64,000 nt of DNA from Gammaproteobacteria bacterium (GCA_028821405.1 JAPPGK010000117.1:7398-71397); one strand, 5' to 3'. Shown: positions 32,691 to 40,736, numbered from the stretch's first letter. Notes: generated by a model not told the origin, from the sequence alone. Numbers and translations are program-made.

Positions 32691-33931
32691 TCGGTGTCGG
32701 CAAGCACCCGCTTGCCAGCGGCGGCGAGGAAGGCGTCTTCGTTTTCTTCGACATCGCCTTGGGCACCGGCCAGCCACGACATCATCCTAGGCAGCGTCTT
32801 CGCTCGGATCCCTCGGCCGACGGGATAGTCCTCCTGATCCGCCGTGCCGCTGTGAACCACGAACTTCCGATCGGGCCGCAGATCTTCGCAGGCGCTGTAG
32901 AACCCCTTCGAGACCTTGGGCGCGGCGCCCCGCTTGATCTCGATGGCCCACAGCTCACCGCTGCCCGATTCCACGACCAGATCGATCTCAGCACCTCCCG
33001 ATGTTCGGTAGAACCCCCAAGCCGCCCGTCGAGGCAGCGCACTGATGATGTTCTCGATGACGAACCCCTCCCAACTGACGGCAACGACAGGATGCCCGAA
33101 CAAGGCGTCGATGGTCTCGATGCCGAGCAAGGCGTGGCAGATGCCGCTATCCCGGATGTAGACCTTCGGCGCCTTGACCAGACGTCGACCCAAATTCGAC
33201 GTCCAAGGCTGAAGTCGTCGAACCAGCAGGAGGTCGACCAAGAGGTCGAGATACCGCGCGATGGTCACACCGTTGACGTCGAGTCCCCTAGCCAGGGCTG
33301 CGGCGTTGTGCAACTGGCCTTGGTTGTGGGCCAACATGGTCCAGAAACGGCGCAGCGTTTCGGCCGGAATGCGTGGCCCGAACTGCGGTATGTCCCGTTC
33401 CAAGTAGCTGCGGATGAAGTCCATGCGCCAATCGAGGCTCGCGGCGTCGGTTTCGGCGAGAAAGCTGTCCGGAAAGCCGCCGCGGGACCACAGTGTGCGA
33501 AGTTCTCCGGCGTCGACTTCCTGCACGGCAAGCGGTTGCAGTTCGCGGAGCGCGACTCGCCCGGCGAGGGATTCGCTGGATTGTTTCAGAAGGTCCTGCG
33601 ACGCTGATCCCAGCAGAAGGAACAACCCAGTCCGCCGGCCCGAGCGGCGGCGCTCGTCGATGATGCTTCTCAGCGGCGCGAACAGGCCCGGCATGCGGTG
33701 CACCTCATCGAAAACCAGCAGCTTGTCGGACTGTTCCTCGCAGTACTCCTCGATGTCCCCAATCATCGCGAGGTGGCTCGGTCGCTCCAAGTCGAGATAG
33801 ACGGCGTCGCGTTCCTCCGAGATCTCCCGGGCGAGCGTCGTCTTGCCGACCTGGCGCGGCCCGGTGAGCACAACGGCTGGGTTGGCGTCCAGGAGGCGGT
33901 GGAGCGTCTGCTTCAGGCTTCGGTCAATCAT
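32684..33931 (-). CDS. AAA ATPase with C-terminal DUF4143 domain (AAA_14 family)
   Basis: 415 aa. VVLTGPRQVGKTTLA (Walker A), LLVFDEVHRMP (Walker B), GRV...L.PL and GGFPDSFL motifs typical of AAA_14/DUF4143 proteins. Confidence 0.85.
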   Translation of the reverse strand: MIDRSLKQTLHRLLDANPAVVLTGPRQVGKTTLAREISEERDAVYLDLERPSHLAMIGDIEEYCEEQSDKLLVFDEVHRMPGLFAPLRSIIDERRRSGRRTGLFLLLGSASQDLLKQSSESLAGRVALRELQPLAVQEVDAGELRTLWSRGGFPDSFLAETDAASLDWRMDFIRSYLERDIPQFGPRIPAETLRRFWTMLAHNQGQLHNAAALARGLDVNGVTIARYLDLLVDLLLVRRLQPWTSNLGRRLVKAPKVYIRDSGICHALLGIETIDALFGHPVVAVSWEGFVIENIISALPRRAAWGFYRTSGGAEIDLVVESGSGELWAIEIKRGAAPKVSKGFYSACEDLRPDRKFVVHSGTADQEDYPVGRGIRAKTLPRMMSWLAGAQGDVEENEDAFLAAAGKRVLADTEW

Positions 33932-33933
33932 CC

Positions 33934-33966
33934 ATGTAAATATATCTCAACGTGTTACATTTACAT
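33934..33966. promoter_or_regulatory. AT-rich inverted repeat immediately upstream of the DUF4143 ATPase start codon
   Basis: ATGTAAAT-N17-ATTTACAT. Perfect 8-bp arms in a locally very AT-rich stretch of a high-GC genome. The right arm overlaps the cytochrome c stop codon. Confidence 0.5.
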
Positions 33967-34479
33967 AGTTTCAGACGGCTGAATCTCGATTGTGCCAAGA
34001 ACCTCCCGATCCGTTGACAGTTCGTCCTTTCCGGTCGGGTACCCCATCTCCGACAGCAGGTAGGCGACGAGGTCGGCGTAGGTCTCTTCGCTCAAGCTTC
34101 CCGGTGCGCTTTGGGGCATCGTGTTGCGCATGCCCACGAAGTAGTCGTAGAGCTTCTTGTCCTTCCAGCGGAACGCAAAAGCGATGCCGACGAGGGAGGG
34201 CGTCATCTGCTGATCGCCGCGGAGATCCTCCTTGTGGCATTCGACGCACTGCTCGAGATAGACGGTCTTGCCGCGCGCCGCCTGGGCTTCGGTGTAGACC
34301 CCGTCGCGCACCGAACGCGCCGGCGGTTTCAGAGGCTCTTCTTCGGAACCGAATCCCGCAGCGGCCAGCCAAGCAGCGGCCACGAGGATGACCAGGACGA
34401 ACGGGACGGGACAAGCCCGTCCCCTACAGTTCGTGTTCCCTGCACGTCCGGAGCCGGGCTCAAGAGTCGGAACTTCCAC
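33961..34479 (-). CDS. c-type cytochrome (single haem, secreted)
   Basis: 172 aa. Hydrophobic signal/anchor and a CVECH haem-binding motif (CxxCH). Met-rich distal region (RNTMPQSAPGS). Confidence 0.8.
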   Translation of the reverse strand: MEVPTLEPGSGRAGNTNCRGRACPVPFVLVILVAAAWLAAAGFGSEEEPLKPPARSVRDGVYTEAQAARGKTVYLEQCVECHKEDLRGDQQMTPSLVGIAFAFRWKDKKLYDYFVGMRNTMPQSAPGSLSEETYADLVAYLLSEMGYPTGKDELSTDREVLGTIEIQPSETM

Positions 34480-36931: not shown

Positions 36932-37402
36932 TTACTGCCGGCTTCGGTCCGCTAACAGCTCGAACGTTACCACCACGTCCCGAGCCACCGCTGACTCGAA
37001 CTGCGCTTCCGTTATCTCCTGTCCCCGTTTGACCACGATCCCGTGGTACGGGGCGTCGGCCGGGAACCGCCCGAGCGTCTCCCGGAGTACCGACGTCTTG
37101 TGTTCGGTGTCATCCGGTCGGGCGTGGGCCCGGGCCGCGACGCGACGCCCCGCCAACTGCAGCTCGACGTCGCGCGGTTCCAGGAAATTCGGCCACCACC
37201 CGGTCTCGCGACCGGTCAGGCACACCACGCGCGACTCGCCCTCGCGCAAGTACCGCACGGGTGTCGCGCGTCGCCTGCCCGTTTTGCGTCCCGTGAAGTA
37301 GATCACCATCACGCTGGGGCTCATCAGGCCGTGCAAGGGCGAGTTCAGGAGCAGTCGCATGACCCGGTTGATGACGGGAAAGAACGGCTCGGGTATGCGC
37401 AC
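36932..37402 (-). CDS. Deazaflavin-dependent nitroreductase/quinone reductase family protein (DUF385)
   Basis: 156 aa. VMVIYFTGRKTGRRRATPVRYL...GWWPNF pattern of the DUF385/F420H2-dependent reductase family. Confidence 0.75.
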   Translation of the reverse strand: MRIPEPFFPVINRVMRLLLNSPLHGLMSPSVMVIYFTGRKTGRRRATPVRYLREGESRVVCLTGRETGWWPNFLEPRDVELQLAGRRVAARAHARPDDTEHKTSVLRETLGRFPADAPYHGIVVKRGQEITEAQFESAVARDVVVTFELLADRSRQ

Positions 37403-37421
37403 TCGACCCCCCCTTACTCAA

Positions 37422-38249
37422 TCACAAGACATGGCTGCCAGCTCGCCGGCCCCACCACCATAGTTGGCCCATTACGACCTGTGCGCGTTTTGCCGGCACT
37501 ACCTCCAACGACATTCCACCAGTGATTCCCGACTCACCCAATGGCCGTGCGTCTTTCGTTCCGTCACCGCCGCGCCTATCCGCCCACGCCGGGCCGATTT
37601 CATCGAACACCCTTCCGGACGACGAATCCCGTACCAGCCAGACAGTTCCGTATGCATGAGGTCCGAAGGGTTGAAGCCTCAGCCAAACCCGATCAAGAAA
37701 CTGCCAAACAGGCAGGCCCGCATCATAGAGTTCTTCCCACTGCGCCCCGTTTGGACCCTGCAACGGTCTCGCATCCAACTGAACAACGGATGCCCTTACG
37801 TTCTCGATCGCTCGCTCTCGGACATCATCCAAGACCTTTAACGCGGTAGAACGCCGACACTTGCTCGAGATCTCCGGCATGTCGAAGCTGTGCAATAAGC
37901 CTTCGTCCGCGAGTGCAAGACTCAAGCTTCTTACAGCACTCGAGCTAATGTTTGCTGTCCCTTGGTGCATTGCACCCACAAAAGCCTCCACCGTCGTCGG
38001 TCCGAACTCGGAAGGCGGGTAGAACACCCAAGGGCGTTTCCACAGGAACACGAAAAAGGCCGACGCAATGCCGATTGCGAACAACAACATGAACGCGAGT
38101 ATTGACGCCTGTAACCAGTCAGAAGAGACGGCCACTGCGACCCCGCATCCTACCTCTACAAGGCCGCAAAAGAGGCCCACTATGTAGAGGGGGCTATTGG
38201 CGAACTTGCGCTTCGCTTTTGGTGTGGCCTGCGCTGGCTCCCCCGTCAT
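37422..38249 (-). CDS. Hypothetical membrane protein (2 N-terminal TM helices + about 200-aa soluble domain), low-GC cassette gene 4
   Basis: 275 aa. TM segments LYIVGLFCGLVEVGCGVAVAV and ILAFMLLFAIGIASAFFVFLW. ATGA overlap with the upstream gene. No family recognised. Confidence 0.6.
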   Translation of the reverse strand: MTGEPAQATPKAKRKFANSPLYIVGLFCGLVEVGCGVAVAVSSDWLQASILAFMLLFAIGIASAFFVFLWKRPWVFYPPSEFGPTTVEAFVGAMHQGTANISSSAVRSLSLALADEGLLHSFDMPEISSKCRRSTALKVLDDVRERAIENVRASVVQLDARPLQGPNGAQWEELYDAGLPVWQFLDRVWLRLQPFGPHAYGTVWLVRDSSSGRVFDEIGPAWADRRGGDGTKDARPLGESGITGGMSLEVVPAKRAQVVMGQLWWWGRRAGSHVL

Positions 38250-38728
38250 TGGCTAGAGATTTGACCATCTACCGAGAGTTGAAGAGTAGCCAACCAGACG
38301 AAGAGCATTCGTTCATCCACGGGCCTGTAGCGCAACGCGTACAGAAGATCGTCATACAGTTGTCGGGGAAGGATAGCGGGGGACAGTTTCATGAACGCTA
38401 GACCGCATCGAACGGCGAACATCTCGTTAATGAATAGGATTGACTGTGAAGCATCTTCGACCTCACAAGTGAACTGAATTGGACGGAGCTTCGATATCCA
38501 CTTGATCGTAAAGGCCGCCTGTTTGGCTTCGTCAACACGCTCTGATCCATGGAAGTCTTTGTGCCTATCCACATCATGGAAATAACTGACAACGACGTTA
38601 AAAAGCACAACTCGATTTAGTTCCAAGTTCGCAAAGCCCAGGTCGAGCCCTGCAAGGAGTCCGGTGAAGATCTGCTCAAGCAGCTCCTGTCGTTGAGCAA
38701 CCCGTGTCTCCTGGGGCGTGAGGGGCAT
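38246..38728 (-). CDS. Hypothetical all-alpha-looking protein with RHKDFH (Rx4H) motif, low-GC cassette gene 3
   Basis: 160 aa in a local 40-47% GC region. AAGGCGAG lies 4 nt upstream of the ATG. No family recognised by eye. Confidence 0.6.
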   Translation of the reverse strand: MPLTPQETRVAQRQELLEQIFTGLLAGLDLGFANLELNRVVLFNVVVSYFHDVDRHKDFHGSERVDEAKQAAFTIKWISKLRPIQFTCEVEDASQSILFINEMFAVRCGLAFMKLSPAILPRQLYDDLLYALRYRPVDERMLFVWLATLQLSVDGQISSQ

Positions 38729-38770
38729 GTGACTCGCCTTGGCGGTCGATCAATTCAAAGACGAGGGGGT

Positions 38771-38986
38771 TCAGCGACGGTTCGTTCCCGCAAGCCTTCT
38801 AAGCGTGGATCGTATGTATCCTGCGTGGTCTTCGTCCGAAGCCCGAACGAAGTCCAAGACGGCTTCCTCGTCGACGGGATGGGCATCATTCGGCGTGCGT
38901 GCTTCCACTACTTCTCGGATCGCATCGTTGTCGAAGAACACCCGATACCGGCGTTCGAGCTTTTCACCCTTGAGTAGTGGCATCAC
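38771..38986 (-). CDS. Small hypothetical acidic protein, low-GC cassette gene 2
   Basis: 71 aa. Its start (GTG 38986 or ATG 38983) overlaps the TGA of the XRE gene, implying translational coupling. Confidence 0.5.
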   Translation of the reverse strand: MMPLLKGEKLERRYRVFFDNDAIREVVEARTPNDAHPVDEEAVLDFVRASDEDHAGYIRSTLRRLAGTNRR

Positions 38987-39249
38987 GTCTCCTCCGCCGT
39001 CCCATCCTCGGCCTCCTCAAGGACAAGTTCGATCTCCACACACAGCGAACCCCCGTGAAGGTCCTGCAACGCGTTGAACACCAGCATCACTTTGTGTCTT
39101 GAATGTGGCTTGCCCTGTTCAAGTGATCGAATCAGGTCACGACCGACTCCGGCCAAGCCGGCAAAGCGGCTCATGCTAACGCCCGCACTCTCGCGTAACG
39201 CTCCGCAGTTTGGGAACCTGCTCTTACGTGCCGTTTTAGCCATTCGCAT
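38983..39249 (-). CDS. XRE-family helix-turn-helix transcriptional regulator, low-GC cassette gene 1
   Basis: 88 aa. LRESAGVSMSRFAGLAGVGRDLIRSLEQGK fits the HTH_3/XRE pattern. Acidic C-terminal tail. Confidence 0.7.
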   Translation of the reverse strand: MRMAKTARKSRFPNCGALRESAGVSMSRFAGLAGVGRDLIRSLEQGKPHSRHKVMLVFNALQDLHGGSLCVEIELVLEEAEDGTAEET

Positions 39250-39252
39250 GCG

Positions 39253-39281
39253 AACCTAGCCGTCAGCACTCCAAATGTCAA
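39253..39281 (-). promoter_or_regulatory. Sigma70-type promoter of the low-GC cassette, giving a leaderless or near-leaderless XRE mRNA
   Basis: On the minus strand: TTGACA (39281..39276), 17-nt spacer, TAGGTT (39258..39253). The first ATG (39249) is 3 nt and the second ATG (39243) 9 nt downstream of the -10 hexamer. Confidence 0.5.
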
Positions 39282-39362
39282 CATGAATCGGCAGTATCAG
39301 GCAGTTTCCCGCTTGAAACATCATTTACTGTACGTGTGTAGTCCCGCCCTCCGTGCATGCCA

Positions 39363-40736
39363 TCACTTGAACTCCGCGATCAGCGCCGAGATCGACGCCT
39401 TGGCATCGCCGAACAGCATGCGCGTGTTGGTGCCGAAAAACAGCGGGTTGTCGACACCCGCAAAGCCCGAGGCCATCGATCGCTTGAGGACGAAAACAGT
39501 GCGCGCGTGGTCGACGTTGACGATCGGCATGCCGTAAATCGGGCTCGCCTCGTCATCCCTGGCCGCCGGATTCACGACGTCGTTCGCGCCGATAACGACG
39601 GCGACGTCCACGTTCGGCATGCGCGGGTTGATGTCGTCGGACTCGACGAGTTGATCGTACGGCACGTTCGCCTCCGCAAGCAGCACGTTCATGTGCCCCG
39701 GCATGCGTCCGGCGACGGGATGGATCGCGTAGCTCACCTCGCAGCCGTTCGACTCCAGGATCTCGCCGAGTTCGCGGACCACGTGCTGGGCTTGAGCAAC
39801 GGCCATCCCGTAGCCCGGCACGAAGGTGACCGACGAGGCGGCTTCGAGGATCAGGTAGGCGTCCTCGGCGACAATGGGCTTCACCTCGCCTTCCACCTTG
39901 GTGGCGGTCTTGACGGCGCCGAAGCCGCTGAACAACACGTTGGTGAGCGACCGGTTCATCGCCTTGCACATGATGTTGGTGAGGATGATCCCCGCGGCGC
40001 CGACAAGCGATCCCGAGACGATCAGGATGTTGTTGTTGATGGCGAACCCGGCCGCACAGGCGGCGAGCCCGGAGTAGCTGTTCAGGAGCGAAATCACCAC
40101 CGGCATGTCCGCTCCGCCAATCGGGATGACCGCCATGATGCCGAGTAGCACAGCGAGCCCCAGGATGGCGTAGAAGAGGTGGGTGTCCGGCGCCGGCTCG
40201 AGGGCAAAGAAAACGCCGCAGACCACCAGGCCGCCCAGTAGCGCGCCGTTGATGAAGCGCTGCGCGGCGAAGACGATGGCACCGCTCGGCATCACCTCCG
40301 CGAGCTTAGCCCAGGCGATGATGCTCCCCGAGAAGGTCACGCCGCCGATCATTACCGAGAGAAAGACCGTGACAGCCGTGAACGTCGTCACCGCACCGAC
40401 GCCCGGATCCGGTGCGAACAGCGCGGCCCACCCCACGAGCAGACTCGCAATGCCGCCGGATCCGTTGAACAGCGCCACCATTTCCGGCATCGAGGTCATG
40501 GCGACCAAACGGGACGCCAACGCGCCGACCAGCGCGCCGGCTGCGGCGGCGATGGCGATCCAGTGGAACTCGACGATGCCCTTCGAGAGCAGCGTGACCA
40601 CGATGGCGATCAACATGCCGCCCGACGACAGCGCATTTCCCGACCGGGCCGTGGCGGGCGAGCCCAACATCCGCAGGCCGAAAATGAACATCACGGCGGC
40701 GGCGAGGTAGGCAAGGTTGACGACGAGGGCGCTCAT
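39363..40736 (-). CDS. pntB: NAD(P) transhydrogenase subunit beta
   Basis: 457 aa. Polytopic N-terminus plus the C-terminal NADP(H)-binding dIII domain (VPGYGMAVAQAQH...AIHPVAGRMPGHMNVLLAEA...VIGANDVVNP). Confidence 0.95.
   Translation of the reverse strand: MSALVVNLAYLAAAVMFIFGLRMLGSPATARSGNALSSGGMLIAIVVTLLSKGIVEFHWIAIAAAAGALVGALASRLVAMTSMPEMVALFNGSGGIASLLVGWAALFAPDPGVGAVTTFTAVTVFLSVMIGGVTFSGSIIAWAKLAEVMPSGAIVFAAQRFINGALLGGLVVCGVFFALEPAPDTHLFYAILGLAVLLGIMAVIPIGGADMPVVISLLNSYSGLAACAAGFAINNNILIVSGSLVGAAGIILTNIMCKAMNRSLTNVLFSGFGAVKTATKVEGEVKPIVAEDAYLILEAASSVTFVPGYGMAVAQAQHVVRELGEILESNGCEVSYAIHPVAGRMPGHMNVLLAEANVPYDQLVESDDINPRMPNVDVAVVIGANDVVNPAARDDEASPIYGMPIVNVDHARTVFVLKRSMASGFAGVDNPLFFGTNTRMLFGDAKASISALIAEFK

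Follow-up and report, generated by a model that had tools for sequence, protein, structure and literature searches.

What kind of genetic element occupies the short, GC-poor interval between pntB and a DUF385-type gene in a metagenome-assembled genome (MAG) labeled Gammaproteobacteria (GCA_028821405.1, JAPPGK010000117.1:7398-71397)? The whole stretch of 64,000 nucleotides (nt) that was analyzed is referred to here as the window, and coordinates given without a locus number are counted from its first letter. Four close-packed minus-strand open reading frames (ORFs) at 37422-39249 encode, in order, an XRE-type helix-turn-helix (HTH) regulator and proteins of 71, 160, and 275 amino acids (aa), the last three of which we call P71, P160, and P275. 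A preliminary description, made from the sequence alone, had put this cassette forward as a candidate for an undescribed defense or addiction module of orphan proteins. Judged by comparison of homologous loci, the conserved core is the pair of P71 and P160, which has toxin-antitoxin (TA) architecture, to which an XRE gene is often added, and P275 belongs to a single clade. We favor the reading that the cassette is a tripartite-TA-like (addiction or abortive-infection) module with a membrane accessory in which P160 itself would be the toxin; this reading rests on architecture and context, and we give it a probability of roughly 0.45.

A horizontally acquired operon

The four genes have the sizes and the tight packing first ascribed to them. 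The XRE-type regulator is encoded at 38983-39249 on the minus strand (88 aa from its first ATG), followed on the same strand by P71 (38771-38986), a small partner protein of 70 to 71 aa proposed as antitoxin or inhibitor; P160 (38246-38728), a predicted all-alpha protein proposed as toxin or sensor; and P275 (37422-38249), a membrane protein with two predicted transmembrane (TM) helices and a predicted C-terminal beta-grasp domain. Both of the overlaps that had been claimed can be read in the sequence. The junction of the XRE stop and the P71 start reads ...ACGTGATGCC (ACGTGATG), with P71 beginning either at a GTG or, more likely, at an ATG whose A is also the last letter of the XRE TGA stop, and the P160 stop overlaps the P275 start as ATGA.

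The whole cassette has a GC content of 55.9%, compared to a mean of 65.2% for the window, and is thus about 4 standard deviations lower; no other segment of this length in the window is as GC-poor (sliding mean, 0.652; standard deviation, 0.022; minimum, 0.551 at 37592), and only here do 600-nt windows fall below 0.58 GC. The 60-nt counts given earlier (24/60 at 38581..38640 and 28/60 at 38401..38460) were exact on recounting, but the accompanying figure of 40 to 50% GC holds only for such local 60-nt windows. Third-codon-position GC (GC3) is 0.56 to 0.64 in the four cassette genes versus 0.84 to 0.88 in the flanking DUF385-type and pntB genes, of which pntB lies on the high-coordinate side and the DUF385-type gene, with its start at 37402, on the low side. 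We take the cassette to be an operon of about 1.9 kb that was acquired horizontally and inserted between these two genes. A second, shorter GC dip is found about 3.5 kb from the cassette, at 33750-34200 (0.55 to 0.58 in 300-nt windows).

Distribution and the conserved core

Locus retrieval and tblastn recovered the full order of XRE, small protein, P160, and P275 in about 14 loci (numbered with the prefix L), at protein identities of 30 to 91%, in MAGs of Pseudomonadales/Azotimanducaceae and Latescibacterota, which may derive from sponge symbionts. In all 14 loci examined the cassette lies 4 to 17 GC points under its flanks, and the chromosomal sites differ: after hisG (L001, L009), near DUF3604 (L002, L020), after pntB (the window, L004), and inside defense islands (L003, L022). 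The cassette is compositionally foreign, as originally proposed, and mobile, with a patchy distribution across phyla. One Pseudomonadales sequence, CBDBPN010000004.1, holds two paralogous copies, of which L005 (at about 0.80 Mb) is complete and L013 (at about 1.46 Mb) is decayed, with P160 cut off at about residue 133, no P275, and an IetS-like gene nearby.

Describing the downstream proteins as orphans did not survive these searches. P160 has 34 clusters of close homologs (33 to 100% identity), and a profile search of 1.84 billion representatives recovered 1197 clusters at an E value of ≤1e-3 and 511 at ≤1e-10, making the P160 superfamily at least 1197 clusters in size (at 50% identity), a lower bound; P275 has homologs in 29 clusters. 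The homologs proved to be neither conserved core genes in a syntenic high-GC context nor members of housekeeping families. The preliminary description was borne out in finding no named system, as none matched the three downstream proteins in Pfam, NCBIfam, PADLOC (PADLOC-DB v2.0.0), or PHROGs, and literature searches found no description of the cassette or of the P160 domain.

What is kept in very distant relatives is a small ORF of 63 to 99 aa that overlaps or abuts the P160-like gene. Such pairs are present in Magnetococcales (L016, L019); in Desulfamplus (L017), between hemC-like and cobA/hemD-like genes that were named by eye from translations; in Desulfovibrio (L018), next to a gene likewise identified by eye as HipA-like; in soil contigs (L114-L116), at an identical position in all three; and on plasmid AZO_p5 of Azospirillum lipoferum 4B (L117:5732-6570; NC_016624.1), where a 77-aa ORF overlaps a 202-aa P160-like ORF and RefSeq annotates the two as "hypothetical protein" (WP_162488498.1 and WP_044553535.1). 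Other loci have the XRE gene, the small protein, and P160 with no membrane gene (L023/L024 and L112/L113), and it is from these three-gene loci and the two-gene relatives that the XRE gene is taken to be a frequent addition and P275 to be clade specific. The charge pattern in L112 and L114 is classic for TA pairs, with a pI of about 4.3 for the partner and 9.3 to 9.4 for the P160-like protein. In gut Bacteroidales (L107:5287-6501, and also L108-L111; P0216) the P160-like gene is part of an overlapping triad with genes for a 140-aa four-TM protein and a 97-aa one-TM protein, both encoded upstream of it; this triad closes glycosyltransferase (capsule-type) loci, beside a PIN TA pair and a VapE-like gene, and is very common (339 index blocks).

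The P160 domain

The AlphaFold2 (AF2) model of P160 (predicted local distance difference test [pLDDT] score of 90.9) is all alpha with six main helices, in agreement with the helical look first noted. In the cassette the protein carries the motifs SYFxDVxRHK and KWIxKLRPIQ. In an alignment of 150 superfamily members only W77 and N101 are invariant, while D52, K69, K76, P83, A105, and Y130 are kept in at least 90%. Scans of the close members and the 150 diverse members found no Pfam or PADLOC model that covers the P160 domain; the strong PADLOC matches among the 150 are to TIR-domain models only, on the TIR part of one fusion. Sequence and profile searches of the PDB with P160-family alignments gave no match, and a search of viral folds in BFVD with P160 gave nothing significant.

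The fusion is P0179, a 299-aa protein (L025:1126-2025, L026:1159-2058) in which an N-terminal TIR domain that matches both ThsB and PADLOC PDC-S66 is joined to a C-terminal P160-like domain. Its neighbors are a 54-aa ORF and a gene for a 222-aa TM protein upstream and a TIR-HD gene downstream. Tandem P160-like duplications within single polypeptides were also observed (P0175, 370 aa; P0187, 363 aa).

Comparison of predicted folds with Foldseek, which the preliminary description had suggested for the downstream proteins, was informative for P275 (see below) but gave only a weak match for P160. Chains of the Doc toxin of phage P1 fill five of the first eight places among the PDB matches, with E values of 0.7 to 1.8, probabilities of 0.63 to 0.80, and template-modeling scores of 0.39 to 0.53 when normalized to the query and 0.47 to 0.65 when normalized to the target; a Coxiella Fic protein ranks 32nd. 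A query sequence 99.2% identical to P1 Doc was used, and an alignment of 10 Doc sequences (A5) was built, in which H-x-F-x-D-x-N-K-R is invariant. Three hhalign runs of P160 profiles against Doc returned probabilities of 0.2 to 2.1%; two of them agree on a register that puts N101 opposite the Asn of the Fic motif, and the third differs. In the shared register, which agrees with the helix count, P160 reads S-I-L-F-I-N-E-M, with Q95 at the position of the catalytic His and with no His, Asp, Lys, or Arg, such that N101 alone is kept. Pfam matches to Fic (PF02661) numbered zero among 32 close and 150 diverse P160 members. We rejected membership of P160 in the Fic/Doc family because the motif HxFx(D/E)(A/G)N(G/K)RxxR is absent and the hhalign result is insignificant; to judge from the predicted model, P160 has at most a degenerate Doc-like fold.

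An assignment to the HEPN ribonucleases was also rejected. An Rx4-6H-type motif, R55-x4-H60, is present in the close P160 family, but R55 and H60 fall outside the set of residues conserved in at least 90% of the 150 members, and H60 is replaced in P0100, P0164, and P0179. HEPN is likewise absent from the Pfam matches of close and diverse members and from the fold matches of P160.

The small partner P71

All cassette loci have in common the P71 motif ELERRYRxLFxNxAIxxVxxARTPNDAxPVDEEAIL, and alignment shows a related pattern, ELExxYxxLxxNxxhxxh...N..P.DE, in the small ORFs that precede distant P160 relatives. A homolog search with the 71-aa protein itself recovered just three close matches, and its one match in Pfam, NCBIfam, PADLOC, and PHROGs, to DpdC (PADLOC; E = 0.0065), is regarded as noise. 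P71 had been described as acidic, which suits most homologs (pI 4.2 to 5.1) better than the window copy; the latter is only mildly acidic and nearly neutral (pI 6.1; net charge, -1.3).

The membrane protein P275

The two N-terminal TM helices and soluble C-terminal domain first read from the sequence of P275 are supported by its AlphaFold model, which comprises TM helices at residues 20-41 and 44-71, a juxtamembrane motif, a helical linker, and a C-terminal beta-grasp domain (residues ~155-252). The pLDDT score is 73.5 overall and 70 to 94 over residues 150 to 250; the juxtamembrane motif, WVFYPPSEF, is invariant among homologs and of low confidence in the model. Foldseek matched P275 to YukD (PDB 2bps; E = 2.8e-4), the ubiquitin-like (Ubl) domain of EccD from ESX systems (7npt, 6umm), NEDD8, UBX, and a bacterial Ubl protein, with probabilities of up to 1.0, and on the basis of this model we are confident that the C-terminal domain has a ubiquitin-like beta-grasp fold. 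A sequence/profile search of the PDB with the P275 alignment gave no match, and Pfam, NCBIfam, PADLOC, and PHROGs returned nothing for this protein. We rejected a role in ubiquitin conjugation, given that the invariant G244-G245 precedes the last beta-strand instead of lying at the C terminus and that the cassette has no E1, E2, or JAB gene, and we rejected a role in type VII secretion given that no type VII secretion system (T7SS) partner genes are nearby.

The last ~20 aa of the window P275 (37422 to ~37490; …AKRAQVVMGQLWWWGRRAGSHVL) are unmatched in homologs except P0035, the closest relative, which is 91% identical and ends in "VNA...HRS". The window ORF, which stops 20 nt short of the DUF385 start, appears to read through the insert border (~37425-37490) into host-like GC-rich DNA.

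The XRE regulator and its promoter

The XRE protein scores 23 bits against HTH_31 (cutoff, 27; E = 1e-4) and 14.4 bits against HTH_3 (cutoff, 23; E = 0.04) in Pfam (families tested, PF01381 and PF13560), and its best NCBIfam match, to the HipB-like family couple_hipB (3e-6), is also below the cutoff; the homolog in L022 carries "weak" HTH_31 and HTH_3 marks. The pattern of the sequence is typical of XRE HTH proteins, so that the assignment made at the outset is plausible even though the profile scores lie below curated cutoffs. XRE homologs (47 to 69% identity) are the first gene in 12 of 14 full-cassette loci scanned (11 distinct), the exceptions being L007, with no match, and L010, with a 24-residue fragment only. 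The length of 88 aa needs revision, as translation likely starts at the second ATG (39243), where homologous loci align, giving a protein of 86 aa.

A candidate promoter/operator region was delimited at 39250..39312 (minus strand) by sequence reading and cross-locus alignment. The window has a -35 box, TTGACA, at 39281-39276, a 17-nt spacer, and a -10-like box, TAGGTT, at 39258-39253, and the conserved ATG lies 9 nt downstream of the latter, a distance so short that the mRNA would be near-leaderless. This feature of the preliminary description gains support from 11 aligned homologous upstream regions, in which the -35 sequence TGTTGACAT, the -10-like hexamer, and an ATG 7 to 12 nt downstream of the hexamer are conserved. 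A strict consensus scan reported no promoter because TAGGTT matches TATAAT at only 3 of 6 positions, and the promoter was recognized through the cross-locus alignment alone. Upstream of the window -35 box are two CTGCC(T/G)(G/A) repeats, 10 nt apart (39304-39298 and 39294-39288), and 7 of the 11 loci have a copy of the repeat between the -35 and -10 boxes. The motif CTGC[CA][GT][AG], defined post hoc, occurs at 13.2/kb in the upstream regions compared to 1.4/kb in the background, an enrichment of about 9-fold. The position of CTGCCGA-type repeats at a conserved promoter suggests putative autoregulation by the XRE protein, with which it fits without proving it.

Insertion site and genomic company

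The probable insert borders, neither of which has a strand, lie at 37425..37490 on the low-coordinate side, where P275 homology ends near residue 252-256 and host-like GC resumes, and at 39313..39362 on the high-coordinate side, between the pntB stop (39363-39365) and the conserved operator/promoter block. Searches found no tRNA, no Rfam family, and no convincing direct repeat in the flanks, consistent with what had first been reported for tRNAs and repeats. The flanking gene at 36932-37402 matches the F420H2-dependent quinone reductase/DUF385 family (E = 9e-8); families linked to F420 occur more typically in Actinobacteria and archaea, although the MAG here is labeled Gammaproteobacteria.

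A Pseudomonadales MAG (JAKZRQ010000079.1) has a cassette at the identical pntB site (L004:1453-4433; window counterpart, 37422-40736). Its PntB is 91% identical to that of the window in protein and 84% in nucleotide sequence, while the cassette proteins are 47 to 69% identical (61 to 71% at the nucleotide level) and the spacer, 66% identical over 110 nt, is barely alignable, reflecting either a fast-evolving cassette or replacement at a hotspot. GC in the L004 cassette is 0.52 versus 0.65, though the insertion appears old. A comparison with genomes lacking the insert had been called for at the outset. In a pntB metagenome scan the cassette was present at this site only in L004 and absent from the available sequence of loci with 71 to 80% PntB identity, but of these L044 alone reaches far enough beyond pntB for a complete cassette to be seen; exact-sequence look-ups of both flanking host proteins, made for insert-free strains, returned no record, and neither approach yielded a true isogenic empty site.

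Neighborhoods were examined in Pfam-annotated loci and in a bulk scan of 128 flanking ORFs. L003 lies near a DUF1156 methylase/SNF2 helicase cluster, AbiJ, and NERD genes, and two of the Latescibacterota loci have PD-T4-4_A 2 to 3 kb downstream of the cassette (L007:13538-15464 and L010:14383-15759; E = 1e-110 to 1e-113; low-GC3 genes). The same 646-aa ORF, with no PADLOC match, follows the cassette in 3 of 3 Latescibacterota loci. TA genes recur: ParDE is directly upstream in L023/L024, a PIN TA pair is directly downstream in L107, and ParD-, RES/Xre-, and PIN-type genes are within 10 kb in L001, L002, and L020. Insertion sequence (IS) elements are near L022, L023, and L112. Strong E1-E2 (CBASS-type) and GajB-like matches were found among L006-L014 without being placed to a single locus.

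Interpretation

The mechanism that we propose takes as its starting point gene order, overlaps, conservation, mobility, predicted folds, and genomic company, all observed directly. A conserved sigma-70-like promoter would give a near-leaderless operon mRNA, and the XRE-type product would repress the operon via the CTGCCGA-type repeats that flank and overlap this promoter. P71, small and usually acidic, would keep its coupled partner P160 inactive, and its loss or titration, for instance through phage infection or loss of the element, would free P160 either to hit a cellular target itself or to switch on a partner effector. P275 would be a clade-specific component, probably a membrane-targeting effector or a membrane anchor or receptor for P160. 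As in type II and tripartite TA systems generally, a coupled pair of a small and a larger gene is conserved across phyla, with a patchy, mobile distribution. The resemblance to TA and abortive-infection cassettes seen at the outset is thus retained for the core pair, and TA pairs, IS elements, and defense genes recur nearby, but the terminal membrane gene that had contributed to it is a clade-specific accessory outside the conserved core.

Several observations weigh against a TA-like module with P160 as its toxin. P160 has no recognizable catalytic motif, its superfamily invariants being just W77 and N101, and its likeness to Doc is statistically weak (Foldseek E values of about 0.7 to 1.8; hhalign probabilities of ≤2%). 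The TIR fusion suggests that P160 may be a sensor or adaptor instead of a toxin. The charges of the pair in the window depart from the usual pattern, with a near-neutral P71 beside an acidic P160 (pI 5.35), and the operator motif was chosen after inspection of the data. Genomic context also has its limits: the association with defense islands is qualitative, without a genome-wide background, the GajB-like matches may be ordinary UvrD helicases, and several relatives (L017, L114) have housekeeping neighborhoods. Lastly, the P160 family was not found on viral contigs, scanned with the close-family alignment, or in phage records, and turned up on one plasmid only.

One alternative is sensor-effector abortive infection, in which P160 is a sensing or switch domain held off by P71, the XRE protein sets only the expression level, and killing falls to P275 in this clade, to small TM proteins in Bacteroidales, and to a fused TIR NADase in P0179. 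We regard this as serious but unlikely. The fusion of a TIR effector domain to a C-terminal P160 domain argues for it, as do the absence of an obvious catalytic constellation in P160 and the recurrence of unrelated membrane proteins beside P160-like genes (P275 downstream; four-TM and one-TM proteins upstream in Bacteroidales; the 222-aa TM protein encoded upstream of P0179), and the invariant juxtamembrane motif and conserved beta-grasp of P275 suit protein binding. Many relatives, however, comprise just the small protein and P160 and offer no candidate effector (L016, L017, L023, L112, L114), and in these P160 must therefore itself carry any activity; a two-TM hairpin moreover predicts pore formation poorly. 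A role outside conflict altogether appears slightly less probable. The cassette would then be an accessory regulatory or stress module, or a mobile-element regulatory relic, in which the XRE protein controls a membrane function and the TA and defense genes nearby reflect shared integration hotspots. Stable housekeeping contexts are compatible with this, including the identical position of L114-L116 and the placement of L017 between haem/cobalamin-type genes (named by eye), and so are the lack of a catalytic motif, the lack of phage carriage with a single plasmid hit, and the pntB site shared by the window and L004 despite a 16% nucleotide difference in pntB, which is compatible with long residence. 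Yet the cassette has a lower GC content than its flanks whatever the host, is patchy across phyla with a second, decayed copy in one genome, and adjoins TA genes, IS elements, or defense genes at most loci, and the superfamily retains an antitoxin-toxin-like coupled pair throughout and includes a member fused to TIR.

A genuine system of the Phd-Doc/Fic type, with P160 as a divergent Doc-like kinase or AMPylase acting on a translation factor and P71 as a Phd-like inhibitor, seems very improbable to us. It would account for the predominance of P1 Doc among the best PDB fold matches and the Coxiella Fic protein further down, for the six main helices in both proteins, for the alignment of N101 with the Fic-motif Asn in 2 of 3 hhalign runs, and for an identical gene arrangement in which a small upstream partner overlaps or abuts the larger gene. 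Against this stand the loss of H-x-F-x-D-x-N-K-R down to its Asn, with Gln at the catalytic-His position, the zero Fic matches among 150 superfamily members, and the insignificant profile and fold scores, with the third hhalign run in another register.

The TA-like reading with P160 as toxin can be extended, tentatively and with more doubt than the reading itself carries, to the whole superfamily. The P160 domain, a large unnamed superfamily with a degenerate Doc-like fold, would together with its small acidic partner constitute a new TA or abortive-infection class that plugs into varied effectors (a membrane beta-grasp protein, the small TM proteins of Bacteroidales, TIR), and the four-gene XRE-led form would be a new anti-phage system. 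If P71 and P160 are a working TA pair or phage-sensing switch, this would provide a function for a superfamily of about 1200 clusters, spread over Proteobacteria, Latescibacterota, Bacteroidota, and Desulfobacterota and including the common gut Bacteroidales triad, and a new combination of fold and effector among the immune and addiction modules of bacteria. How such modules couple sensing to killing could be tested starting from the ubiquitin-fold protein tethered to the membrane and from the fusion with TIR. For annotation, the signature of the cassette is an XRE gene, a ~70-aa ORF, a ~160-aa ORF with SYFxDVxRHK and KWIxKLRPIQ, and a two-TM ORF with WVFYPPSEF.

Comparison with known systems

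HipBST is a tripartite TA system composed of the XRE-type HipB, the small antitoxin HipS, and the kinase toxin HipT (PMC6581861). The cassette shares its operon order of XRE-type HTH protein, small neutralizer (putative in the cassette), and larger toxin or toxin-like protein, its separation of the HTH protein from the neutralizer, and its form as a compact mobile element, and the window XRE protein hits couple_hipB, albeit below the cutoff. The two differ in that P160 resembles neither kinases nor HipA, P71 bears no relation to HipS, and a fourth gene, for a membrane beta-grasp protein, is missing from HipBST. In Phd-Doc, the addiction module of phage P1, a small upstream partner gene likewise overlaps or abuts a helical protein of toxin size, Doc is the best, if weak, fold match of P160, and both would be addiction-type mobile modules if our preferred reading is right; unlike Doc, P160 has no Fic/Doc motif and no significant profile similarity, P71 is without Phd/YefM similarity, and DNA binding in the cassette appears to be delegated to the separate XRE protein. 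PaaR2-PaaA2-ParE2 and omega-epsilon-zeta are three-component TA systems with a separate regulator, a small acidic antitoxin, and a toxin, carried on mobile DNA. The cassette would follow the same logic of regulator, small acidic antitoxin, and toxin, with mobile carriage, but the protein families are unrelated, the libraries gave no ParE/RelE or zeta-kinase signature, and the cassette has an extra membrane protein. It belongs to none of HipBST, PaaR-PaaA-ParE, omega-epsilon-zeta, and Phd-Doc.

Likenesses to two further systems concern single domains. The C-terminal domain of P275 is structurally closest to YukD and EccD, and both EccD and P275 tether a cytoplasmic beta-grasp to a membrane part; in P275 the TM portion comes first, the opposite order, with 2 TM helices versus 11, and there are no T7SS genes nearby and no sequence similarity. 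Thoeris ThsB and PDC-S66 are both matched by the N-terminal TIR domain of P0179, which lies beside a TIR-HD gene, but the PADLOC models cover the TIR only and not the P160-like domain, and NADase domains, whether TIR, SIR2, or another, are absent from the window cassette. A compact mobile TA- or abortive-infection-like cassette with an XRE regulator is thus of an already known kind; what is new relative to the libraries and literature searched is the set of protein families, the pairing of the small partner with P160, and the TM-beta-grasp accessory.

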